From the sequence record NC_048194.1: 64,000 nucleotides of DNA. One strand, written 5' to 3'. Position 1 is the first letter of the stretch; the number at the start of each line of letters is the position of its first letter. Source of the DNA: Escherichia phage vB_EcoM_WFH. Below are positions 5,612 through 64,000 of this stretch, in pieces. The position numbers were made by a program, and so were the translations under genes. The notes under the pieces were generated by a model. It was not told the DNA's origin, did no database searches, and saw only the letters and a list, made by a program, of their open reading frames with translations.

Positions 5612-5684
5612 CTCACTTGTTAACGTATAATGAGTATAACTTAATAGTGCATAAAGTAAAGGCGCTGAAAGCGCCTTGAGTGAA

Positions 5685-9422: not shown

Positions 9423-10883
9423 ATGAATAAAATATTAACACATAATTGGAAAGTCATGTACCAGTTGAATCCTGCTTTAAGAGAAGTCTGGAAGACGAAA
9501 GCGCGATACAAAGTCATATACGGCGGTCGTGCATCTTCCAAATCGCACGATGCCGCTGGTTTTGCTATTTATTTGGCGGCAAACTTCAAATTAAAATTCC
9601 TTTGCGTTCGACAATTCCAGAACAAGATTTCTGAATCAGTATATACGCTATTAAAAGATAAAATAGAGATTTCTGATTTTAAAGACGAGTTCAACTTATT
9701 AAAAAACTCTATTGAACACAAAAGAACAAAATCTGAATTTTTATTTTACGGTATCGCACGCAACGTTGACGAAATCAAATCAACAGAAGGTGTTGATGTT
9801 CTTTGGCTTGAAGAAGCGCATGCACTGACTGAAGAGCAATGGGACATTATTGAGCCGACAATTCGTAAGGAAGGGTCCGAAATATGGATCATATTTAACC
9901 CTGATGAAGAGGCTGATTTCGTCTACCAGAACTTTGTTATGCGACCGCCGAAAAATGCCATCGTTAAGAAGATTAACTGGCAGGACAATCCATTCTTGTC
10001 GCAAACAATGCTGGATGTTATCGCTGGCATGTATGAGCGCGACCCGAAAAAGGCAGAACACGTTTATGGCGGAGTGCCGAAGACAGGTGGCGATAAGTCG
10101 GTCATCAACCGTGCATTCGTCAAAGCCGCGCTAAACCTCCACAAACACCCTACGCTGGGATGGAGCTTGTCAGGGTCTAACCGTATAGGCTTCGACGTGG
10201 CGGACGACGGCGACGACTTAAACGCCACAGCGTTTGTCACAGGCAACGTATTACGTGGCATCAAGACATGGGAAGGTCTGGAAGATGAATTGCTTAAGTC
10301 CGCAAGCGGAGTCTGGAAAGACGCATTGACATTCGGCGCATCAATCACCTATGACGCCATCGGTGTTGGTGCATTTGCTGGTTCAAAATTTGATGAGCTT
10401 AATGAGTATGCAATCCATGAAAATCCAACATTCCCAAGAATCGAATTTAATGCGTTCAACGCGCAAGGTGCTGTTGATGATCCTGATGACGTCTTCCTTG
10501 AGTTACCACACGTTGAAATACTCAATAAAGACCATTTCGCAAACATAAAAGCGCAAAAATGGACTGAGATTGCCGAACGATTCAGAAAGACATATGAGTA
10601 TGCGACAGGGCAAGCCGTATATCCGACCGATGAGTTGATTTCCATCGACACAGACGGCATCCCAGAACTTGGTATTCCCGCTTGGTCTGCGGAAGAAATT
10701 GAGACGTTTCTTTTTGAGATGTCAGCACCGCGCAAAGACACGTCTGTACTTGGCAAGTTCAAAGTTGAATCGAAAAAGGATATGGCAAAGCGTGGAGTCA
10801 AATCGCCTAACAAAGCGGACGCAGCAATCATGGCATTGATGAAACCAATTGTTGCAGCATCCGGCTTCTTCTCTAACCTTTAA
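9423..10883 (+). CDS. terL: Terminase large subunit
   Basis: Walker A GGRASSKSH near the N-terminus, Walker B-like VLWLEEAH, nuclease-type C-terminal half; 486 aa; portal follows. Confidence 0.9.
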   Translation: MNKILTHNWKVMYQLNPALREVWKTKARYKVIYGGRASSKSHDAAGFAIYLAANFKLKFLCVRQFQNKISESVYTLLKDKIEISDFKDEFNLLKNSIEHKRTKSEFLFYGIARNVDEIKSTEGVDVLWLEEAHALTEEQWDIIEPTIRKEGSEIWIIFNPDEEADFVYQNFVMRPPKNAIVKKINWQDNPFLSQTMLDVIAGMYERDPKKAEHVYGGVPKTGGDKSVINRAFVKAALNLHKHPTLGWSLSGSNRIGFDVADDGDDLNATAFVTGNVLRGIKTWEGLEDELLKSASGVWKDALTFGASITYDAIGVGAFAGSKFDELNEYAIHENPTFPRIEFNAFNAQGAVDDPDDVFLELPHVEILNKDHFANIKAQKWTEIAERFRKTYEYATGQAVYPTDELISIDTDGIPELGIPAWSAEEIETFLFEMSAPRKDTSVLGKFKVESKKDMAKRGVKSPNKADAAIMALMKPIVAASGFFSNL

Positions 10884-10886
10884 CAA

Positions 10887-11126
10887 TTAAAGCATTCCGT
10901 GCTGAAGGTCGAGCTTTCTTGCGGCAAACGACCTGGCACGGAATCGCTTACCCGCCCTTACTGCCTGTCGAATTTTCTTTTGCAAACACTTACGGTCAAA
11001 ATCGTTGCGGTCGACGGCTTCGAGTAAATCGCGACGCAGTGCACCCAGTGTCGACTTTTCGGAGACTTCAACGCCCAGCGCGGCTGCAACATCTTTCAAA
11101 ACATCGAGTTCGGTTAAAGTTCTCAT
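10887..11126 (-). CDS. Hypothetical protein
   Basis: 79-aa ORF with RBS AAGGGG. Confidence 0.45.
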   Translation of the reverse strand: MRTLTELDVLKDVAAALGVEVSEKSTLGALRRDLLEAVDRNDFDRKCLQKKIRQAVRAGKRFRARSFAARKLDLQHGML

Positions 11127-11539
11127 TTGATAATCCCCTTGATGTCTGATTCTGCCATAAAGATTGGAGTGCCGCCGCCAGGAACAATCGAGCGCGTGAC
11201 CTTGTCAAACATATCGTTTTCTTCAACTTGAATACGATAAAATTTATTTTTGGATGAAGATGGGCACAATCCCATAAATTTGCCGATGCCGCGAACGCAT
11301 TCATCTTCAAAGTATACTGTTTCACCTTGAATGGAGTCGATGTCGTCTACTGGATAGACCTTGCGACCCAATAGCCACTCATCCAAAGTCGCCTGCAAGA
11401 CGTTGCGCGCATCTAAAATCCACGGGTCAATAGTAGCACCTTCATATCGCGCAGCAGTGGCCTTTGCCAGTTCTTCATATTCGCATACGTTAACGACTTC
11501 GCCGTTGTGCAAGACGACAAATACAATTGTTGTGCTCAT
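11123..11539 (-). CDS. Hypothetical protein
   Basis: 138-aa ORF, stop/start overlap with the downstream gene. Confidence 0.5.
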   Translation of the reverse strand: MSTTIVFVVLHNGEVVNVCEYEELAKATAARYEGATIDPWILDARNVLQATLDEWLLGRKVYPVDDIDSIQGETVYFEDECVRGIGKFMGLCPSSSKNKFYRIQVEENDMFDKVTRSIVPGGGTPIFMAESDIKGIIK

Positions 11540-17843: not shown

Positions 17844-18461
17844 ATGACTTTCCAAACTAGTGTAGGCCGTCAATATACAACTGGCTTTCCTGGCGACATC
17901 GTTCGCGACGGCCCACAGCGTGGGAAGCCAGGCCGAATTGCCAACGCTAACGAAGGCGCAAACGTAAACGCCATCAGCCGTGTGTTCGGTTTTAAGACTG
18001 ACGTATCCTTAATGGGTACTGGTCAAACCAAAACTTTGGGCGCGCAGGACTTTGAAGTTGAGCTGGGCGGCACCAACTACTACGGCATCCTCGGCAATAG
18101 CAAGCGTTACGCGCTGTATGGCAACTCTACTGGTCCTTTGGGTGCCAGCATGGTTCTGCCTCAATATAGCGAAGGCGAGTTCTATGATATGTGCACGGGC
18201 CTCGTAGTTGAAGTATTCAACCCAAGCACCAGTCCGCAGACGCTTAACTATGGCGACCTGCTTGCTTATGTACCTAAAGGCATTTCCAGCGGTAACAACC
18301 CGAACAACTTGCCTATTGGTGCAATTATCGCCTATACTGGCTCATTGCCAACTGGCATGGTTGCCATCCCAGGCGGTATTGTGATTGACCCGACGACTAT
18401 TGCCCTTTCCGGCCCAAGCGTCCAGTCTTCCACTTATACCATTGTACAATTGACTCGTTAA
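17844..18461 (+). CDS. Capsid-associated structural protein (decoration or minor capsid, uncertain)
   Basis: Lies between scaffold and major capsid genes; Gly/Ser/Thr-rich; RBS AAGGGG. Confidence 0.45.
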   Translation: MTFQTSVGRQYTTGFPGDIVRDGPQRGKPGRIANANEGANVNAISRVFGFKTDVSLMGTGQTKTLGAQDFEVELGGTNYYGILGNSKRYALYGNSTGPLGASMVLPQYSEGEFYDMCTGLVVEVFNPSTSPQTLNYGDLLAYVPKGISSGNNPNNLPIGAIIAYTGSLPTGMVAIPGGIVIDPTTIALSGPSVQSSTYTIVQLTR

Positions 18462-18475
18462 TAGGCAGGTGAATA

Positions 18476-19615
18476 ATGACTCGCATTAGCCAAACACACT
18501 CTCGCCTCCCAGCGAGCAAGGTGCGCCCTTTTGATATGCAATCCGTGACCGACGCGGCTGTTTCCCAGCTTGCGCGTATCGGTATTGTGTTTGATTCCGC
18601 GATTGTGCGTGATCAGATTGAGCACTTAAACCGTGCAGGTGCTTTCCGCGTAGGTGACGCCGCATTTACTGCGCCGCAAACCACGCCATCAATCCCGACC
18701 CCGCTGCAGTTCCTGCAACAGTGGCTGCCTGGCTTCGTCAAAATCATGACCGCTGCCCGTAAAATTGACGAGCTGGTTGGTATTGACACCGTTGGTCAGT
18801 GGGAAGATGCAGAAATCGTTCAGGGCATCGTTGAACCAGCTGGCACCGCAGTTGAATATGGTGATTTCACCTCTATTCCTCTGGCAAGCTGGAACGTGAA
18901 CTTTGAACGCCGTTCCATCGTTCGCGGTGAAATGGGCATGGCAGTCGGCATGCTGGAAGAAGGCCGCGCGTCTGCGATGCGTCTGAACTCTGCAGAGACC
19001 AAGCGCCAGCAGGCTGCTGTATCTCTGGAAATCATGCGTAACGCAATCGGCTTCTATGGTTGGTATAACGGGAACAACCGCACGTTCGGCTTCCTGAATG
19101 ATCCAAACCTGCCAGCGGCAATGACTTCAAACACCACTTCCGGCTGGGCTACTGCGACCTTCCAACAGGTGACTGCAGACATCCGTTTGATGGTTCGTCA
19201 AATCCGTGTCAACTCTCAGGACCAGATTGATCCAGAGAAGGTTGATATGACTCTGGCGCTGCCGACCAACTCTATTGATTGGCTGTCAAACACCACCGAC
19301 TTCGGTATTTCTGTACGTGACTGGATCACCCAGACTTATCCGAAGATGAAGATCAAATCTGCACCGGAACTCAACGGCGCACTTGGCAGTGACCCGACTT
19401 TCCTGAACGTGGCATATCTGTACGCTGATCACATCGATTCCTCAATTGATGGCTCAAGCGATGATGGTTCCGTATTCAGTCAGCTGGTCCAGACTAAGTT
19501 TATGACTCTGGGCGTTGAGAAACGCGCTAAGAGCTACGTTGAAGACTACGCAAACGCAACAGCAGGCGTTCTGCTCAAGCGTCCTTTCGCAGTCGTCCGT
19601 ATGACTGGTATCTAA
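18476..19615 (+). CDS. Major capsid protein
   Basis: 379 aa directly after the scaffold genes, RBS AGGTGA, followed by a hairpin; assigned by position and size. Confidence 0.65.
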
Positions 19616-19640
19616 TTGCTGTGATTACACAGTAAAACAC

Positions 19641-19670
19641 ATGGGGCGTGGTCGAAAGGCTTCGCCCCAT
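19641..19670 (+). terminator. Post-capsid hairpin, candidate terminator or RNA-stability element
   Basis: ATGGGGCG-loop-CGCCCCAT; no clear T-tract. Confidence 0.35.
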
Positions 19671-19730
19671 ATCAATAGACCTCAAGGGCTGTAGGGGCTT
19701 ATCTGAGGCTTATATAAATAGGACTACAAA

Positions 19731-20195
19731 ATGCCAAAATACATCGTTTCAACTATGTCTATGTCAGTCAACTACACTTTCTATACGGAAGTGAAAGAAA
19801 ACCCGAATGCAAAAGCTGGTTCAGGCGCTCTTCCAAATATTCGCAAACAGATTCTGATCAAGGGCGGTGCTGGTCTTACTTCGGCAACTTCCGGCTTTGG
19901 TGAAATGGCAAAAGGCGCTGATGGTGCACCTTTGTGGACTCCTGAAGGAATCGTCACCGTTGTAAGCGATGCTGATTTTGAACATTTAAAAGATCATCAC
20001 GTATTCAAGCAGCACCTTGAAAAAGGTCTGGTTAAAGTGGTTAACCACGACATCGTTGGCAATCATAAAGCTGTCGCCAAAGAAGTGCGCGGCATGTCAG
20101 ATGACCCGTTCGCACCTATGACGCGTGAGACGGCTGACAAGCGCATCAAGGTTAAATTGAGCGGCGAACAAGAAGATGATTTGTTCCGCGTTTAA
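19731..20195 (+). CDS. Hypothetical structural protein
   Basis: 154-aa ORF in the head-tail joining region. Confidence 0.5.
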   Translation: MPKYIVSTMSMSVNYTFYTEVKENPNAKAGSGALPNIRKQILIKGGAGLTSATSGFGEMAKGADGAPLWTPEGIVTVVSDADFEHLKDHHVFKQHLEKGLVKVVNHDIVGNHKAVAKEVRGMSDDPFAPMTRETADKRIKVKLSGEQEDDLFRV

Positions 20196-20665: not shown

Positions 20666-21021
20666 GGATTCCTGGCGTAAACTTATATCGAGTTGCGACA
20701 AAGGTCATCGGTCGCCAACCGATTCAATATTACATGTACAAGGGGCGCACTCTTGATAAAATGCGCAACTACGTTACCACTTATGAAGAACCAATCACGC
20801 TACTTGCTTCGGTGCAGGCTGTTCTTCGAAATCAATACGTCGAGCTTGGATTGGAGCTTCAAAAGAACTATGTCAAAATCTGGGTAGACAAAGACATTGT
20901 TGACCTTGACCGCGACGCTTCCGGCGACTATTTGTGTTTGGTGGGAAAACGTATAAAATGGAAGATGAAACGACATGGTTTGACCAAGATGGTTGGACGA
21001 CTTGCCTTGCCGTGGAAATAA
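20662..21021 (+). CDS. Hypothetical structural protein
   Basis: GTG start overlapping the upstream stop. Confidence 0.4.
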   Translation: MRIPGVNLYRVATKVIGRQPIQYYMYKGRTLDKMRNYVTTYEEPITLLASVQAVLRNQYVELGLELQKNYVKIWVDKDIVDLDRDASGDYLCLVGKRIKWKMKRHGLTKMVGRLALPWK

Positions 21022-21239
21022 AACAAAGCTTTCCAGTGTCTACTTGAGGTGTATATGACAGATGTCGACCTGATTGAACATGCTGGCAACGCGAATTGAA
21101 GAAGGTCTGGCGGCGTATAGTCGTGCAGACCTTTCTGCTGTTCCGGTCCAGAAAAAGTATCAACCGACTCAACAGGGTATTCCGACTGGTGACCAAATTT
21201 GGTTTAACCTTTTATTCTCAGTTCCGTTTTGGATGGTCC

Positions 21240-21632
21240 ATGAGGAAAAGTGAATTTGTCAATGATGAGTCTCAATTTGTAAACGGAAAATTCAGAGATA
21301 TTGAAGATCAAATATACGCTACACGTTTTCAAATCAGCGGCTTATTTCCAGAAGTTCCTGGCAATCCAGAAAAGCCTACTGCTAATGACGTATTGACTTA
21401 TTTGGCAAGATTCATAACTCATAAAGCGAATTTGAGGGATTGGTTCAAAAAGCATCAGGCATCAGTATATCGAATCGACATGAATAATAATGAAAAGTTT
21501 TATGATGACATGTCGCAATTTGAATCATTCCCTTCTTTTGATTTGGTAATACTTCACAGAAACGCAATTTCAATTGATACTCCTGCTGTTGCAAGAGCTG
21601 TTAATAATGATTTGGGTGATATTCCGGTGTAA
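21240..21632 (+). CDS. Hypothetical structural protein (start uncertain; possible frameshift with a 58-codon upstream frame at 21080-21255)
   Basis: ORF 21096-21632 has a TTG start; a protein-like frame 21080-21255 overlaps it. Confidence 0.35.
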   Translation: MRKSEFVNDESQFVNGKFRDIEDQIYATRFQISGLFPEVPGNPEKPTANDVLTYLARFITHKANLRDWFKKHQASVYRIDMNNNEKFYDDMSQFESFPSFDLVILHRNAISIDTPAVARAVNNDLGDIPV

Positions 21633-22134: not shown

Positions 22135-23673
22135 GTGATCAGTCAATCTCGTTATATTAAAATTGTATCAGGGGTCGGAGCAGGCGCGGCTGTTGCAGTT
22201 CGCAAACTGTCGCTTCGCGTCATGACTTCTAATACAGTTCTGCCGCCGGGCATTGTAGCAGAATTTTCAACGGCTGATGCTGTTGGATCATATTTCGGTT
22301 ATTCTTCCGAAGAATATAAGCGCGCAGCATTATATTTTGGATTCATCAGCAAGCAAATTAACTCGCCTGATTCAATCAGCTTCTCGCGTATTGTTTCAAC
22401 TGCGATTCCAGCAATGGTCATCGGTGATACTGAGCCTAAAGTGCTTGCTACGTTTCAAGCATTCACTGGCGCTATTTTAAGCATCACTTATGATGGCACA
22501 GACTACCTGACTGACGCAATTAACCTTTCAGCGGCAACAAGTCTGGCGAATGTGGCTGAACTTCTGGAAACGGCAATCAATACTAAATTTGCAGCAGAAG
22601 GGGGCACGTCGGTGCCTGCACTTGCTGATGCAGAAGTGTATTGGAACGCTAATACTCAGCAGTTCACGCTGGAAGCAGCGCCGTCGACCGCTGGCGCAGG
22701 CAATCTGTCTATCAACGTCACAGGCCAACCGACCGACCCGTCTCAAGCATTAGGTTGGACCACCACTGGCACCGTAACCGTTGCAGGCCAGGGCGTTTCA
22801 AGTCCGGTAGAAGCCATCGCGGCATCTGTGGAAATCTCCAACAACTTTGGCTCATTCCTTTTTGCTGGGGCTGACCGAACTCTGGAAGAAATTACCGCTG
22901 TGGCAGCGTGGACTCATTCGCAGAATAATATGTACATGTATTTATTCTCGACTTCGTTCGCTAATATCGGGTCATACTACACCGCTCTGAAAGGGTACTC
23001 AGGCGTTGGCATGATGATTCGCGCAACTAACCTTGCAAACGATTACATCGACCAAGCACCTGCTGAAATCCTTGCGGCGACAAACTATAATACTGTGAAT
23101 GCGACTCAAAACTACATGTATTATCAGTTTGATACTCGCAACGTGACTGTTTCAACTGACTCTCGTGCAGACACTGCTGATCAAAACCGTGCTAACTACA
23201 TCGGTGCAACTCAGCAGGCCGGACAAACCTTGGCATTCTTCCAGCGCGGCGTATTGATGGGCGGGTCTACCGCAGCAGTTGACATGAATACTTATGCCAA
23301 CGAGATGTGGCTTAAATCTGCTATCACTTCTCAGCTGTTCAGCATGTTCTTGAATCTTGGTCGCGTGCCTGCAAACGAAGAAGGTAAAGCGACTGTACAA
23401 GCCATGATTCAAGTTGCTGTTGACAATGCGAAGGTTAACGGCACCATCTCTGTTGGTAAGGCGCTGACTGAGATTCAGAAACAATACATCACGCAAACTT
23501 CCGGTGACAACACTGCTTGGCGGCAGGTTGAAACTATCGGTTACTGGCTGACTGTAGATTTTGATACTGAAACCACTTCAGATGGGCGCACCGAATACTA
23601 TGCAACATACACGCTAATCTACTCTAAAGATGATGCTGTGCGTCGCGTTGAAGGTCGTGACGTCCTTATCTAA
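22135..23673 (+). CDS. Tail sheath protein
   Basis: 512 aa, GTG start after AAGAGGA; followed by tube paralogs and tape measure. Confidence 0.6.
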   Translation: MISQSRYIKIVSGVGAGAAVAVRKLSLRVMTSNTVLPPGIVAEFSTADAVGSYFGYSSEEYKRAALYFGFISKQINSPDSISFSRIVSTAIPAMVIGDTEPKVLATFQAFTGAILSITYDGTDYLTDAINLSAATSLANVAELLETAINTKFAAEGGTSVPALADAEVYWNANTQQFTLEAAPSTAGAGNLSINVTGQPTDPSQALGWTTTGTVTVAGQGVSSPVEAIAASVEISNNFGSFLFAGADRTLEEITAVAAWTHSQNNMYMYLFSTSFANIGSYYTALKGYSGVGMMIRATNLANDYIDQAPAEILAATNYNTVNATQNYMYYQFDTRNVTVSTDSRADTADQNRANYIGATQQAGQTLAFFQRGVLMGGSTAAVDMNTYANEMWLKSAITSQLFSMFLNLGRVPANEEGKATVQAMIQVAVDNAKVNGTISVGKALTEIQKQYITQTSGDNTAWRQVETIGYWLTVDFDTETTSDGRTEYYATYTLIYSKDDAVRRVEGRDVLI

Positions 23674-23720
23674 ATAATTGCCGCCGTAACTGGCGGCCAT
23701 CTCTCTGAGAGGAATCTGTA

Positions 23721-24188
23721 ATGATTAACGTTTCCGGTTTTGGCGCTTCGATTCGTTTAGTGGCATCAAACACTTTTCCAAATGGTGTAACTCTTTCTGA
23801 TTTCGCAGATGATGCTGATCCGATTGACGCGCCTGATCTTCAAATCTCTGAAGCGGCAATGGGATTGAACGGTGACTTGGTAGTCTGGAACCGTGCCAAC
23901 CCTCTTGAAGTAGGCGTCAACATCATCCCTACTTCTGAAAGCGATGTAAACTTAGATGTTCTGGCAGCGGCTAACCGTGTAGGCAAGCGCAAGAACTCTG
24001 CGAAAGACGTGATCACCCTTATTCTGACCTACCCTTCTGGCATGGTCATCACACTGAACAAGGGAACTTTGACGACTGGTTCAGTGATTCCTGGCATCCA
24101 GTCTCAGGGTCGTGTAAAAACACGTCAATATCGCTTTAAGTTTGAGAACGTAGTCAAAACTGGCGTGAGCAACCAAGAGATTTTATAA
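23721..24188 (+). CDS. Tail tube protein (paralog 1)
   Basis: 155 aa after the sheath; N-terminus MINVSGFGASIRLVA matches the paralog at 25139. Confidence 0.55.
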   Translation: MINVSGFGASIRLVASNTFPNGVTLSDFADDADPIDAPDLQISEAAMGLNGDLVVWNRANPLEVGVNIIPTSESDVNLDVLAAANRVGKRKNSAKDVITLILTYPSGMVITLNKGTLTTGSVIPGIQSQGRVKTRQYRFKFENVVKTGVSNQEIL

Positions 24189-55552: not shown

Positions 55553-55655
55553 TTCAGGCGACCTTTGTTAGTGCGGAAATATTTTCTGATAGTATAATTG
55601 CAGATATAGTATAAAGCAAAGTAAATCGAAATTGTGAACTAAATGGTAAATATTG

Positions 55656-55683
55656 TTGACTTTGTATCACTCAATATTATACT
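55656..55683 (+). promoter_or_regulatory. sigma70-like promoter for the primase operon
   Basis: TTGACT, 16-nt spacer, TATACT, about 30 nt upstream of RBS AAGGAAAG. Confidence 0.55.
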
Positions 55684-55712
55684 GCAGGTATTGATCACCG
55701 AAGGAAAGAAAG

Positions 55713-59774: not shown

Positions 59775-60421
59775 TGAATAAAGCAATCAACATCGCTAAA
59801 TTCTTTCAACATCTCGGTGAACTGAACAAAGAGAGTGACGTTCACGGAGAAGAAATGAACCGGATGATTTCAACCGTGTTGCGTGGTTTTGGTTACGATA
59901 AGGACTCAATCACCTGTAAGCGCACGAAGCTTGTCGATGAGACATACCTTTACTACGTTGAATTGCGCGTAGGCAAAGATTTGATGATCATCGACCCTAA
60001 ATTGGAAGGGGCGCACTGTTTTGGCGCTCACCCTCGTGCGAGTGAATTCAAGGGTCGCGGTCGCAACCGACTCCAGAAGCTTGATGATGCAGGCGACCTG
60101 AACATCTCGATGTTCCTCAAAGAGTTCCTTGCTCTGCCGAAGGTTGCATCTTCAACGGGCCGTGATGACCTGTGCAAGATTGGATTCAGAACTAAAGATT
60201 TGCGCAATGCGCTACGCAAGAAGGGATTTGTGCCTTCTTATGATAACGTCGCCGCGCTGATGGCTTCCATGGAGGAAGCTGAAGCAATGGACAAGGTGCG
60301 CGGCTATTTCCTGAATACAGGCTACACAATGTATGAGTGGCACACCAAAGGATTGACGGTCGCCGACTTCATCTATTCATTAGAGCAGAAGTATGTACGC
60401 AATATGCAGGCCACAGGATAA
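59774..60421 (+). CDS. Hypothetical protein
   Basis: 215-aa ORF, ATGA overlap. Confidence 0.5.
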   Translation: MNKAINIAKFFQHLGELNKESDVHGEEMNRMISTVLRGFGYDKDSITCKRTKLVDETYLYYVELRVGKDLMIIDPKLEGAHCFGAHPRASEFKGRGRNRLQKLDDAGDLNISMFLKEFLALPKVASSTGRDDLCKIGFRTKDLRNALRKKGFVPSYDNVAALMASMEEAEAMDKVRGYFLNTGYTMYEWHTKGLTVADFIYSLEQKYVRNMQATG

Positions 60422-60460
60422 TTATCATCAAAATATTTGCTTTTCTGACGAGGTGATATT

Positions 60461-60685
60461 ATGATTAATTTAGACAGGATTGAGTTAGCACTTAGTACCT
60501 TAATCAAATATTACCAGTTTGCTTTTAAGGCTAGTTTATTTGGCTTGTTCAATCCTCATCAAGCAGCAAAGGCGCGAAGCAATGCCAACCGCCTGCGCTG
60601 CACTGGTATAGTCATCCACGACCGGATATTGACAGAGGGTAGATTCAGCCATGAATACACAAGGGAGAATAACAAAGCAACGTAG
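60461..60685 (+). CDS. Hypothetical small protein
   Basis: RBS GAGGTGA. Confidence 0.45.
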   Translation: MINLDRIELALSTLIKYYQFAFKASLFGLFNPHQAAKARSNANRLRCTGIVIHDRILTEGRFSHEYTRENNKAT

Positions 60686-60860
60686 GGCTTTACAAGTCCT
60701 CACCCACTACCTGACACGCCTTTATCCTACGGCGCACGAGCAGAATCCATCAACTGGTCACCTGTTTAAGCGCCGTAACCTTTCGTTGAAAACATTCGCT
60801 TTAATCCAATACGACCGATACCTGGACGGGCGCTACTGCGGCCCGAAGGACTCACTATGA
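60651..60860 (+). CDS. Hypothetical small basic protein
   Basis: Overlaps the 3' end of the previous gene. Confidence 0.35.
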   Translation: MNTQGRITKQRRALQVLTHYLTRLYPTAHEQNPSTGHLFKRRNLSLKTFALIQYDRYLDGRYCGPKDSL

Positions 60861-61135
60861 TTTCTACATACAAAGTGTTCTTTGTCAAGTGCACGTCATC
60901 GATTGATGACCAGTTTACTGCTGGAAAGAATTATCCCGTGATTTCTGAGTCAAGACTAGATATAATCTTGAACGATCATGAAATCTATGAGCCGATGCCG
61001 GCAACTGCGTTTGATGTTATCGGTCACGTTCGGATTAAGACGAATGTTGGAACGATGCATGACCCGTTGTTCAAGAAGCAAATTAAGAATGCCATGCAAG
61101 ACTTTTGCTCGGCTATGTTTAAATACTATAAGTGA
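60857..61135 (+). CDS. Hypothetical protein
   Basis: ATGA overlap. Confidence 0.45.
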   Translation: MISTYKVFFVKCTSSIDDQFTAGKNYPVISESRLDIILNDHEIYEPMPATAFDVIGHVRIKTNVGTMHDPLFKKQIKNAMQDFCSAMFKYYK

Positions 61136-61142
61136 GTTGAAG

Positions 61143-61364
61143 ATGAGAAAGAAAACTCTTAAGGCTGGGGACCGCATCCGTTGGATGTCAGGACAGAATA
61201 TGCGAGCAGGCACCATCCTTGAGCTGGATCAATACCTTACTGATTCGCGTGGTCGCAATCACTATCGCGTTCGAATCGATACGGTAAAAGAAGATGACAA
61301 GTCACTGGTTGGTGAAGTGGTCATCGTTACTCCACGTCAAATTAAGGCGGCTTGTGAAGCATGA
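61143..61364 (+). CDS. Hypothetical small protein
   Basis: ORF 60978-61364 trimmed to MRKKTLK. Confidence 0.45.
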   Translation: MRKKTLKAGDRIRWMSGQNMRAGTILELDQYLTDSRGRNHYRVRIDTVKEDDKSLVGEVVIVTPRQIKAACEA

Positions 61365-61516
61365 ATAAATTTCAGTTTAACGATAACAAAATCAATAAGG
61401 CAGATGCAATCAAGCAGCTTCGGCGCGTACTTGAAGCCAGCGGCCACACGAAAGAGCGTGCACGCGTCTTAGCCAAAGAACATTATAAACGTTTTGTGTC
61501 ACAAATCAGAGGTTGA
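61361..61516 (+). CDS. Small hypothetical protein (51 aa), not in the ORF track
   Basis: ATGA overlap with the upstream gene; basic, helical-looking. Confidence 0.35.
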   Translation: MNKFQFNDNKINKADAIKQLRRVLEASGHTKERARVLAKEHYKRFVSQIRG

Positions 61517-61518
61517 CC

Positions 61519-61866
61519 ATGGCTCATGTTAAAGACGAAGTGTTGTTTGGCGCAGAGATTAAGAAGCGTGTCAGAGAAATGGCAGGAGAAGAAAGAATGA
61601 AACCGCTGCGAAAAGGTTTTGATCACATCAATGGCGTATCCGGCACGAAGGAGATGGGCGTGTTGGTAAAAGACATTCGCATTGGGGATGTCATGGTCAT
61701 CGACCGACAAGCGCGAGTTGTTATCCAGGTGCAACCGAACGATGATGAAGGATGTGTCCTATTGAAGCTGAAGAAGCTTTCATCCAGCCCAGCAAAGGCC
61801 GTCATTAAGAAGGTCTGGCCCGAAGGATTACGCAAACTCATTCGTCGACCCGTGGAGAATGTATGA
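61519..61866 (+). CDS. Hypothetical protein
   Basis: RBS AGAGGT before the ATG at 61519. Confidence 0.5.
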   Translation: MAHVKDEVLFGAEIKKRVREMAGEERMKPLRKGFDHINGVSGTKEMGVLVKDIRIGDVMVIDRQARVVIQVQPNDDEGCVLLKLKKLSSSPAKAVIKKVWPEGLRKLIRRPVENV

Positions 61867-62102
61867 TGGAAGATTATATCAACGCAATGTACATGGCATT
61901 CTATGTCGTACAACTTCCCAATGGCGCGGTATTTTATGGCGAGTATACCTTTGACGTTCAATATGACGTCTCAGAGCGTACAGTGTTAACAAGGGAGTTG
62001 ATTGCGGACCTTAAGGACGACATCAAGCGCGTCGCGCGGCAGCAGTTCAATTTGGATGACACCGTCATCGTTCGAATTACCGGAATAACAGAGGTGCAGT
62101 GA
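61863..62102 (+). CDS. Hypothetical protein
   Basis: ATGA overlap. Confidence 0.45.
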   Translation: MMEDYINAMYMAFYVVQLPNGAVFYGEYTFDVQYDVSERTVLTRELIADLKDDIKRVARQQFNLDDTVIVRITGITEVQ

Positions 62103-62431
62103 TGACCCGTGATCAGATACTCGCCGCGCATGAGCGTGGGTTGATAAAGGAAGTGTGGAAGAAGGCCAATGCCTTTGCTGATTCTTATTACTTCTTAAAG
62201 AAGTGCATCAAGCAAAACGCAAAGATGGATAACACTGTATTGACATTCAACCTTTTGTCTAACGGAGCGAAGCTTGATGCAATATGCGGTTGCAGAATTG
62301 CCAGTGTGATGTTTGAACGAGGTGCTCACAAAGACTCTTTCTTCTATCAATTCTCTCACCGGACGGGTGATACAAAGATAACAAGGACGCGTGAAGAGCT
62401 GGAGATTGACCTACTCCACTATGTAAAATGA
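62099..62431 (+). CDS. Hypothetical protein
   Basis: RBS GAGGTG; start at 62099 or 62102. Confidence 0.5.
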   Translation: MMTRDQILAAHERGLIKEVWKKANAFADSYYFLKKCIKQNAKMDNTVLTFNLLSNGAKLDAICGCRIASVMFERGAHKDSFFYQFSHRTGDTKITRTREELEIDLLHYVK

Positions 62432-62434
62432 ATA

Positions 62435-62484
62435 TCAAAAAGGTGAGCTAAATGCTTGCCTTTTCTTTTATCAATACTTATACT
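62435..62484 (+). promoter_or_regulatory. sigma70-like promoter with a 26-bp upstream block repeated at the window end (63975-64000)
   Basis: CAAAAAGGTGAGCTAAATGCTTGCCT occurs at 62435-62461 and 63975-64000; here TTGCCT, 17-nt spacer, TATACT (62479-62484). Confidence 0.5.
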
Positions 62485-62516
62485 CTTTTCATCAAGACTA
62501 ACAAGTGAGGTGAATT

Positions 62517-62834
62517 ATGATTTACTTAGGCATCGACAAGGAACAAGACGAGCGGTTAGGAAGCGTGTTAAACGTAGACTTGAACACAGCTGTACATATC
62601 AAGCCTTGGCCAGATGGCCACCCCGACGTAGTTGTACCCGTTGCACCTTGGACGCGTTACGTGGCCATTGACGATGATGGCCTTGTCCATTGTTATTCAG
62701 AAAGGCCAACGTATTTCGAGCTTCACCGCGAATGGCTGATGACTGGATGGGCAAAGGTGCGCTGTTGCGGCGAAGTCGGTCTGGAATGCTGGGGATTCAA
62801 GGCTAGTGAATCGTGTGTCGAGGTGCAATTATGA
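62517..62834 (+). CDS. Hypothetical protein
   Basis: RBS GAGGTG. Confidence 0.5.
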   Translation: MIYLGIDKEQDERLGSVLNVDLNTAVHIKPWPDGHPDVVVPVAPWTRYVAIDDDGLVHCYSERPTYFELHREWLMTGWAKVRCCGEVGLECWGFKASESCVEVQL

Positions 62835-63049
62835 ATGCCGCGCTGGGTAAGCTGTCTTTCAACAAGCGCAATGAGCTGCGCATGGTGTCGCGCTTTCAAC
62901 AAACGTATTCATCACTAATAAAGATTGCAAATAAGGCCGACTCTAGAGCTTGCCATAAAGAAGAATGGGAAGCATTGAACGAGCGTCGTAAACAATTACA
63001 ACATGCTGCATTCAAGCTGCAGCAATATGCTATGGAGTATGCAAAATGA
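62831..63049 (+). CDS. Hypothetical small protein
   Basis: ORF 62813-63049 trimmed to the ATGA-overlap start. Confidence 0.45.
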   Translation: MNAALGKLSFNKRNELRMVSRFQQTYSSLIKIANKADSRACHKEEWEALNERRKQLQHAAFKLQQYAMEYAK

Positions 63050-63330
63050 AGGTGCAACGCTGCCCACATTGCTTGTCAACTATGCGACTTCCTGTTGAAG
63101 AATATTTACATCACGTTAACGTTTGTGAAGCTAATCCTGAAAATTCGACGCGTTACTATTATCACTATCACGCAGAAGCGGAAGATGGATCAGGCGCAAC
63201 AGGAATCGTTACCACGAAAGAAATGGTGATCACCAAAAAGGCGTATGAAAGCCTGCTGGATACAATAAAGGAAGTATCTGGAAAAGAAATAATCTGCATT
63301 AAATCTTTGTCTTTCTTACACGAGGTGTAA
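63046..63330 (+). CDS. Zinc-ribbon-like small protein (tandem paralog 1)
   Basis: RCPHCLSTMRLPVEEYLHHVNVCEANP; ATGA overlap. Confidence 0.5.
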   Translation: MKVQRCPHCLSTMRLPVEEYLHHVNVCEANPENSTRYYYHYHAEAEDGSGATGIVTTKEMVITKKAYESLLDTIKEVSGKEIICIKSLSFLHEV

Positions 63331-63331
63331 A

Positions 63332-63715
63332 ATGAGAATGAAACGTTGTCCGTATTGCCACGATGTGATGCATCTTCCACATGAAGAGTTTGTGCAGCAC
63401 ATGACTAACTGTGATAAGAATCCTAATAGCGAAAGCCAACTTGAAGAAAGAATGTTCTTGGTGTCATTCAAAGCTTCTGCTTATGAAGTGCAACGTTCTT
63501 ACGGCGCACCAAGTACGATTTACTGTCCAACGACATTGAGAAGCGACATCGACTCAATTCAGCTTGCGGCCTGGATTAACGTTAAGGAAGGAATCACGCC
63601 GCACTTTATCGCGCGCATCCAATCCCAGATTCTACAAATCAAGCGCGAATACAACCGTGACATCACTGAAGTGAAGGTGTTGTCTATCACACCGATGAAT
63701 AAGGAGTTGCCGTGA
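63332..63715 (+). CDS. Zinc-ribbon-like small protein (tandem paralog 2)
   Basis: KRCPYCHDVMHLPHEEFVQHMTNCDKNP, same C-x2-C ... H ... C spacing as paralog 1. Confidence 0.5.
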   Translation: MRMKRCPYCHDVMHLPHEEFVQHMTNCDKNPNSESQLEERMFLVSFKASAYEVQRSYGAPSTIYCPTTLRSDIDSIQLAAWINVKEGITPHFIARIQSQILQIKREYNRDITEVKVLSITPMNKELP

Positions 63716-63972
63716 ACAAGGGTCCGATGACTAAGTTAGCCGTTGCCGCGCGGAAGCTTCGACAAGCCGTTAATGGGTCGCGGCCCGTGGTGTTAACACT
63801 CGACGATGCAAAGGCACTGGTAGAGCTACTCGACGAGCACAACCGACGCAAGAATCTGGAGAACACATTACGCTGGCGCGTTACTCCGAAAGGGCGGGAG
63901 AGCGAGAAGAAAGCTTACTTGCGACGCAAACTAAGGTCAGTCGGCCTCCACGAAGAGGCGAAGAATATTTAA
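63712..63972 (+). CDS. Hypothetical basic protein
   Basis: GTG start overlapping the upstream stop; followed by the repeated promoter block. Confidence 0.4.
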   Translation: MNKGPMTKLAVAARKLRQAVNGSRPVVLTLDDAKALVELLDEHNRRKNLENTLRWRVTPKGRESEKKAYLRRKLRSVGLHEEAKNI

Positions 63973-64000
63973 TTCAAAAAGGTGAGCTAAATGCTTGCCT

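Follow-up and report, generated by a model that had tools for sequence, protein, structure and literature searches.

What is a short, exactly repeated sequence doing at both ends of a run of small phage genes, and what do the enclosed genes encode? We asked this of a 64,000-nucleotide stretch of DNA (the window), in which a preliminary description had recognized a 26-bp promoter block with a TTGCCT −35 element, duplicated on either side of five small genes. The observation is confirmed and its first interpretation is partly supported. The duplication stands, at a length of 27 rather than 26 nt: TCAAAAAGGTGAGCTAAATGCTTGCCT lies on the + strand at 62435–62461 (copy 1) and again at 63974–64000 (copy 2, truncated by the window end). 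These are its only two exact occurrences in the window, with no further copy there at up to 3 mismatches and no match in 100 shuffles. By sequence comparison the window comes from a Wifcevirus, an Escherichia coli myovirus of the WFH/WFC type. Its 60000–64000 segment matches 27 Wifcevirus records, with WFH (OZ035737) the closest relative at 98.5% identity and the 26 others at 89–95%. Members of the genus are E. coli and Shigella myoviruses of 66–72 kb, with a reportedly rapid infection cycle that is unusual in its speed. A ~3.7-kb terminal repeat is present in the published genomes (PMC6563267).

The repeat extends beyond the exact block. In WFH, copies 1 and 2 match exactly over 30 nt and at 94% over 36 nt, and alignment of the full intergenic regions from four phages per copy reveals that the two are homologous across the whole ~85 nt. 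Beyond the window end, WFH copy 2 continues with a U-tract, TTGCCT-N16-TATACT, TTCATCAAG, a Shine–Dalgarno site and an ATG. The two copies form the two largest intergenic gaps of the 58–64-kb gene string, whose remaining junctions either overlap or leave no more than 39 nt between genes. Scanning IMG/VR with the 23-nt core of the hairpin that the block encodes returned Wifcevirus contigs and no match outside the genus, and an Rfam scan of 61500–64000 gave nothing but a chance match to MicX (18 bits, with the gathering score at 75).

The preliminary description placed a promoter at the centre of the block; its main feature is instead a hairpin with the properties of an intrinsic terminator, leaving the −35 reading plausible and secondary. 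This element (62438–62472, + strand) is formed by the stem AAAAGGTGAGC/GCTTGCCTTTT around a TAAAT loop, followed by CTTTTATC. In the + strand RNA of copy 1, an 11-bp stem (AAAAGGUGAGC / GCUUGCCUUUU) with a 5-nt loop runs directly into the U-tract, with UUUU inside the stem end and then CUUUUAUC; the tract of copy 2 is UUUUUAUUU. The fold has a predicted energy of −14.2 kcal/mol (z −4.0; 0/200 shuffles equally stable), and a terminator scan picks up the hairpin and its T-run. Two of the stem pairs are G–U and are present in the + strand RNA only, so the fold of the − strand is weaker and has an internal loop; this strand specificity is consistent with a signal that acts in sense transcripts. 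The hairpin starts 6 nt past the stop codon at 62431 in copy 1 and 4 nt past 63972 in copy 2, and the WFC record (MK373777) annotates both copies as ‘putative transcriptional terminator, -10.10’. The repeated block is thus first of all a candidate intrinsic terminator, predicted from sequence and position. With only 3–4 G–C pairs among 11, its stem is AU-rich and may terminate transcription incompletely. The two copies have the same stem and loop, which hardly vary across the genus. We rejected the idea that this invariance is exceptional, as three other, unrelated terminators of the genome that we checked are just as conserved across it. A small open reading frame from an ATG in the hairpin loop was also rejected: in WFH copy 2 it shares the frame of the gene downstream (L001 17992–18357), but it meets a stop in WFC through a 1-nt difference, ends after 18 codons in copy 1 and is not conserved.

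A sigma-70-like promoter candidate overlaps the hairpin on the same strand (62456–62484), comprising a −35 TTGCCT (62456–62461), a 17-nt spacer and a −10 TATACT (62479–62484); copy 2 has the same hexamers 16 nt apart. Both sites match sigma-70 at 9/12 positions. Such a score is not above chance (10 sites in the region against 14.2 expected in shuffles), so the case for a promoter rests on context. Since TTGCCT lies inside the 3′ (descending) arm of the hairpin, its reading as a −35 element is plausible but secondary. In an alignment of the two copies, with four phages for each, neither hexamer changes and the spacer varies; the copies also agree throughout in the block with the hairpin, in TTATACT and TTCATCAAG, and in the Shine–Dalgarno/ribosome-binding region. 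From the usual 7-nt distance to the −10 hexamer, transcription would start near 62491, within the conserved TTCATCAAG (62488–62496, + strand), downstream of which copy 1 has a GAGGTG Shine–Dalgarno site. With a TATACT −10, TTCATCAAG and a Shine–Dalgarno site beyond the hairpin, the duplicated unit is therefore best described as a terminator–promoter–leader junction of ~85 nt. TATACT preceded by TTTACT, TTGCCT, TTGCTG or TTGACT is found at further sites between genes, and TATACT is also present in a divergent promoter region at 55.6 kb. On the − strand of the window, a terminator hairpin is followed by a promoter-like TTTACT/TTGCCT/TTGCTG ... TATACT/TATAAT site at 5677, 9347, 38877 and 53015, the −35 at 5677 likewise overlapping the stem end. 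A terminator-then-promoter junction is thus a recurring design in this genome, and the repeat is a single example of it that appears two times.

Comparison across the genus (8 distinct copy-1 and 6 distinct copy-2 sequences) indicates constraint on the entire unit. Mean pairwise difference per site is 0.025 for copy 1 and 0.014 for copy 2, against a synonymous divergence of 0.29–0.45 in the two adjacent finger genes of the same phages. The junction is therefore under purifying selection along its whole length, varying 12–30 times less than synonymous sites. Our preferred reading, to which we assign a probability of roughly 0.6, is that a terminator–promoter–leader junction is present twice and bounds a five-gene operon with two old tandem C2HC paralogues.

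Could the junction be a terminator and nothing more, with fortuitous hexamers and downstream genes expressed by read-through from a promoter near 55656? We consider this unlikely. Matches of 9/12 are no commoner than in shuffles, the T-rich tract of any terminator easily gives TTG/TTT-type −35 look-alikes and the AU-rich stem suggests leaky termination; yet the copies agree fully in TTATACT and TTCATCAAG despite a diverged spacer, TATACT recurs past other terminators and in the divergent promoter region at 55.6 kb, and the leader as a whole is 12–30 times more conserved than synonymous sites. The converse reading, a duplicated early promoter whose hairpin plays no part in termination, would account for the retention of TTGCCT-N17/N16-TATACT in both copies, and an upstream A-tract could serve as an UP-like element. 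It is nonetheless very unlikely, given that the exact repeat covers the hairpin and not the promoter hexamers plus spacer, that an 11-bp stem with an immediate U-run, placed a few nucleotides past a stop codon, is what a canonical terminator looks like, that WFC carries a terminator annotation and that the G–U pairs restrict the fold to the sense RNA.

Two further explanations address why the repeat is maintained. The hairpin might additionally be a sequence-specific site for a phage antiterminator, a repressor or RNase processing, which would explain the identity of stem and loop in the copies and their near-invariance in the genus; the restriction of the motif to Wifcevirus contigs in IMG/VR is consistent with this. 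Against it, unrelated terminator hairpins of the genome are equally invariant, so invariance is not special, and the motif has two copies only, no Rfam match and no candidate regulator; we give this extra role a very low probability. A specific version, in which a phage factor, perhaps a C2HC protein of the cassette itself, recognizes the hairpin in an autoregulatory terminator/antiterminator or repressor loop, we regard as highly improbable. Alternatively, the junctions could serve mainly as patches of homology at which co-infecting phages exchange cassettes, with recombination maintaining the repeat. Gene content near the junctions does vary: WFC and Bas100 have an extra 64-aa gene there, flanked in WFC by a 21-nt direct repeat with the hairpin 5′ arm inside it. 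The presence of the 94-aa gene in 11/27 records and the mosaic differences between the window and WFH in the 127-aa gene point the same way. A patch of 27–36 nt is however a small target for homologous exchange, the copies have unrelated proteins on their flanks, whole-cassette duplication is not seen and the 94-aa gene comes and goes inside the cassette and not at the junctions. We consider this explanation quite unlikely, and it would in any case be a side effect beside a regulatory function, not an alternative to one.

Returning to the terminator–promoter–leader junction as the boundary of an operon, we examined what it encloses. The upstream + strand string ends in a 110-aa gene (62099–62431; orthologue annotated in WFC, Bas98 and Mansfield), after which five + strand genes lie between 62461 and 63974, in agreement with the count first given. 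Gene 1 (62517–62834, 105 aa) belongs to phrog_1972, of unknown function, and is joined by an ATGA overlap to gene 2 (62831–63049, 72 aa, no family match). Gene 3 (63046–63330, 94 aa) and gene 4 (63332–63715, 127 aa) are the paralogues described below, and gene 5 (63712–63972, 86 aa, no family match) has a GTG start that overlaps the gene 4 stop. Genes 2–5 have no PHROG match and no Pfam match above threshold. With ATGA/GTGA overlaps or a 1-nt gap at every junction, the five genes read as a translationally coupled operon. All except the 94-aa gene (4/5) were seen in every relative inspected. All-versus-all BLASTP of + strand open reading frames around both junctions found no duplication of the whole cassette; its only pairs were the zinc-finger paralogues and one unrelated pair further downstream. 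Proteins flanking copy 1 and copy 2 are unrelated, and the repeat is limited to the junction.

In the preferred reading, transcripts from upstream would probably start at TTGACT-N16-TATACT (55656), ahead of the primase genes. The + strand hairpin and U-run would halt some or all of them, and host sigma-70 RNA polymerase would re-initiate at the embedded promoter, ~25 nt ahead of the next start codon. The re-initiated polymerase would then transcribe the five genes as far as the second identical junction, where the sequence of events would repeat for the next gene set. A junction at each end makes the cassette a self-contained operon with the promoter–genes–terminator layout of a phage ‘moron’. 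Overlap of the terminator and promoter signals would keep each junction compact; we speculate that termination and initiation would then also hinder one another physically. The analysis establishes the repeat, the hairpin, the sequence conservation, the paralogy, the coding constraint and the distribution; termination, initiation and early expression, together with zinc binding by the paralogues, are what we infer.

The two adjacent genes were described as tandem paralogues with a common C-x2-C ... H ... C motif and divergent C-terminal halves, and both statements are borne out. Residues 1–36 of the 94-aa and 127-aa proteins (63046–63153 and 63332–63439) align at 39% identity (BLASTP, E 1e-10), and hhalign of the two families gives 97% probability over residues 1–35 only, with no sequence similarity detectable between the C-terminal parts. 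Four residues (C6, C9, H23 and C27) do not vary in either family (15 and 7 sequences), defining a C-x2-C-x13-H-x3-C pattern. In the AlphaFold2 (AF2) model of the 127-aa protein (mean pLDDT 64.5; finger 73–84) this shared motif takes the form of a classical β-β-α C2HC zinc finger, in which zinc would be bound by these four side chains: two short strands (residues 4–5 and 12–13) precede a helix (17–26), so that a short β-hairpin carries the Cys pair and the helix carries H23/C27. The earlier label of zinc ribbon does not survive this analysis. The paralogues resemble a ribbon in their N-terminal C-x2-C knuckle and differ from it in the second ligand pair, H-x3-C on a predicted helix and not C-x2-C on a β-hairpin; the two C-x2-C/C-x2-H knuckles on two β-hairpins that define a zinc ribbon are not present. 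The only Pfam matches, all sub-threshold, are of C2HC/C2H2 type: DUF7501 (best score 25.1 bits, cut-off 27), zf-Di19 (17.7, cut-off 27.5) and zf-C2HC_2 (12.6, cut-off 27). With these families the paralogues share the C-x2-C and H-x3-C pairs, which the 127-aa model puts on a hairpin and a helix, and a hydrophobic/acidic ‘LPxEEF’ core between them. Unlike classical fingers, they have an x13 spacing where x11–12 is usual, and a lone finger joined to a small α/β domain of unrelated type. The classical type compared here also takes in fingers with UBZ4/TRAF-like spacing.

Structure prediction, proposed earlier as a check on the paralogy, agrees in part. Beyond the finger, the 127-aa model has a strand–strand–helix–strand order that recurs in residues 37–91 of the 94-aa protein (pLDDT 70–82), whose own finger falls below pLDDT 50 (mean for the model, 60.6). 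The C-terminal parts may therefore share a β-β-α-β fold, to which the 127-aa protein would add a long insertion at residues 52–71; with sequence similarity undetectable, a shared fold is only suggested, from modest AF2 models and six weak BFVD matches common to the two paralogues' top-50 lists. The remainder of the BFVD fold search returned their own orthologues and weak matches to small uncharacterised phage proteins. Searches of the PDB found nothing by sequence, and nothing by fold at E < 0.5.

How widely are these proteins distributed? The 127-aa gene is present in 27/27 Wifcevirus records, and the 94-aa gene is accessory (11/27); among the BASEL phages, Bas98 carries the pair, and the 94-aa gene is missing from Bas99–101. 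Word-indexed database searches retrieved only orthologues, from phage contigs of ~68 kb. A HMMER profile search run in full against 1.84 billion representatives recovered the family itself and a distant 161-aa protein (P0034, E 7e-4) with a similar finger, itself matching CEP104_ZnF and ZNF598 below the Pfam thresholds; a repeat protein from the same search is probably spurious. These searches gave neither a homologue outside the genus nor a structural match that would assign a function to either paralogue, and on this sequence evidence the two form an ORFan pair confined to Wifcevirus. A finger HMM and a loose regular expression, applied to all six-frame open reading frames, revealed no third member of the finger family in the genome. 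The metagenomic orthologue P0028 has a third, divergent version of the finger, whereas the rest of its body is conserved.

The proposal of a diversifying family fails on selection as well as on its two-member size. Nei–Gojobori estimates from 9 distinct 127-aa and 7 distinct 94-aa alleles give whole-gene dN/dS of 0.14 and 0.06, respectively, so both are coding genes under purifying selection and therefore not diversifying. By region, the 127-aa gene has dN/dS of 0.04 in the finger, 0.34 in the loop at residues 47–72 and 0.10 in the C-terminal part; positive selection was rejected on these values (0.04–0.34) and on 0.06 for the 94-aa gene. The variable loop is relaxed and carries indels. Differences between the window and WFH in this gene are mosaic. 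As to role, our guess is a predicted single-finger zinc-finger adaptor that would bind a host or phage macromolecule.

Set beside known systems, most elements of the locus are familiar. Like E. coli and phage Rho-independent terminators, the junction has a stem–loop followed by a U-run on the sense strand just past a stop codon. It differs from usual intrinsic terminators in its AU-rich stem with two G–U pairs, and in a 3′ arm and U-tract that also supply a promoter-like site with its −35 hexamer and spacer. Hendrix and Juhala's concept of the phage ‘moron’ describes a unit of promoter, genes and terminator. The cassette resembles one in its few accessory-looking genes, with a predicted promoter upstream and a predicted terminator downstream, and in its varying content among relatives. 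Unlike a moron, it is embedded in a long run of co-oriented genes in a virulent phage, both its boundaries are the same duplicated sequence and 4/5 of its genes, all except the 94-aa gene, occur in every relative inspected. Pbunavirus, a distant relative of Wifcevirus (PMC11990801), provides the nearest transcriptional comparison: phage 14-1 uses the host RNA polymerase, and its sigma-70-like promoters have been mapped by ONT-cappable-seq (PMC10914365). The resemblance is to a related lineage that lacks its own RNA polymerase and has many of its transcription units driven by host-type promoters; in contrast, the sequences are non-homologous, the host is different and the Wifcevirus promoters are predicted from sequence. 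A literature search turned up neither a transcriptome nor a study of gene function for any Wifcevirus.

The junction and the ORFan pair are ordinary phage architecture, and nothing points to a new mechanism. With the hairpins already annotated as terminators in the WFC GenBank record, the embedded candidate promoter is a small addition. For Wifcevirus, the outcome is a concrete, testable map of two transcription-unit boundaries, in a genus that the BASEL phages Bas98–101 make tractable in E. coli K-12 derivatives, and its predicted finger proteins are reasonable candidates for host-takeover or anti-defence screens.

Predicted terminator-then-promoter junctions recur outside the repeated pair (junctions 1 and 2) that brackets the five-gene cassette. 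On the minus strand of the window, sequence patterns place others at 5677–5633, 9347–9272, 38877–38806 and 53015–52934, each formed by a hairpin and T-run with a promoter-like site 0–35 nt further on (TTTACT, TTGCCT or TTGCTG, an N16/17 spacer, then TATACT or TATAAT). At the 5677 junction, the putative −35 element overlaps the end of the stem, and the leader shares AACAAGTGAGGTG with that of junction 1. Comparison of two of these minus-strand terminator hairpins with the closest relative, WFH (record OZ035737), shows identical stems and reverse-complemented loops (5677–5659 versus WFH 27991–27972, and 9347–9327 versus WFH 31670–31650, minus strand in both genomes). The loops read TTTC in this phage versus a GAAA-type sequence in WFH, and AAATAAT versus ATTATTT; judged from these sequences, the differences are small inversions inside inverted repeats.

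The hairpins of junctions 1 and 2 carry an ATG in the loop, preceded by a Shine–Dalgarno-like AAGGTGA in the 5′ arm, which opens a short ORF (window 62452–62508 for copy 1; WFH 17992–18357 for copy 2). The WFH copy 2 ORF shares its reading frame with the downstream gene, which would gain a hydrophobic 20-aa extension from it. We consider this ORF probably untranslated, because its frame is broken in WFC (record MK373777) and the copy 1 ORF stops after 18 codons. WFC and Bas100 hold an additional 64-aa gene between the 110-aa gene (62099–62431, plus strand) and junction 1. In WFC, this insertion is flanked on both sides by a 21-nt direct repeat, AAATGAATATCAAAAAGGTGA (10908–10928 and 11121–11141; equivalent window position ~62425–62445), which comprises the stop-codon region and the hairpin 5′ arm, and whose upstream copy doubles as the Shine–Dalgarno site of the 64-aa gene.

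The long rightward gene string that includes the junctions and cassette likely starts at a divergent intergenic region (55560–55712), with helicase-side genes (minus strand) on one side and primase genes (plus strand) on the other. Of the sigma-70 matches in the area, the best one lies here (TTGACT-N16-TATACT, 10/12, at 55656), and the opposite strand carries two TATACT sites. Downstream of the window end, the same string holds a second paralogous pair of 169 and 191 aa (WFH 19348–19857 and 20741–21316; 52% identity across the C-terminal 63 residues, E = 2e-16). Also past the window end, in window orientation, WFH 22658–23864 has four or five copies of ATTTGCACTAT(A/G) spaced 180–790 nt apart; long ORFs are scarce there and sigma-70-like matches numerous, and the region may serve in regulation or as an origin.

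Intact orthologues of the tandem finger genes (94 and 127 aa) are present in Bas98 at 9528–9812 and 9814–10197; the different annotation of this locus in record PQ850608 (9607–9711 and 9727–10197) is therefore probably a gene-calling error. A metagenomic orthologue of the 127-aa gene (P0028) has a third, divergent version of the finger at residues 1–36 (50% identity to the 127-aa finger, 42% to the 94-aa finger) on a remainder that is ~95% conserved, a pattern suggestive of modular exchange of the finger.
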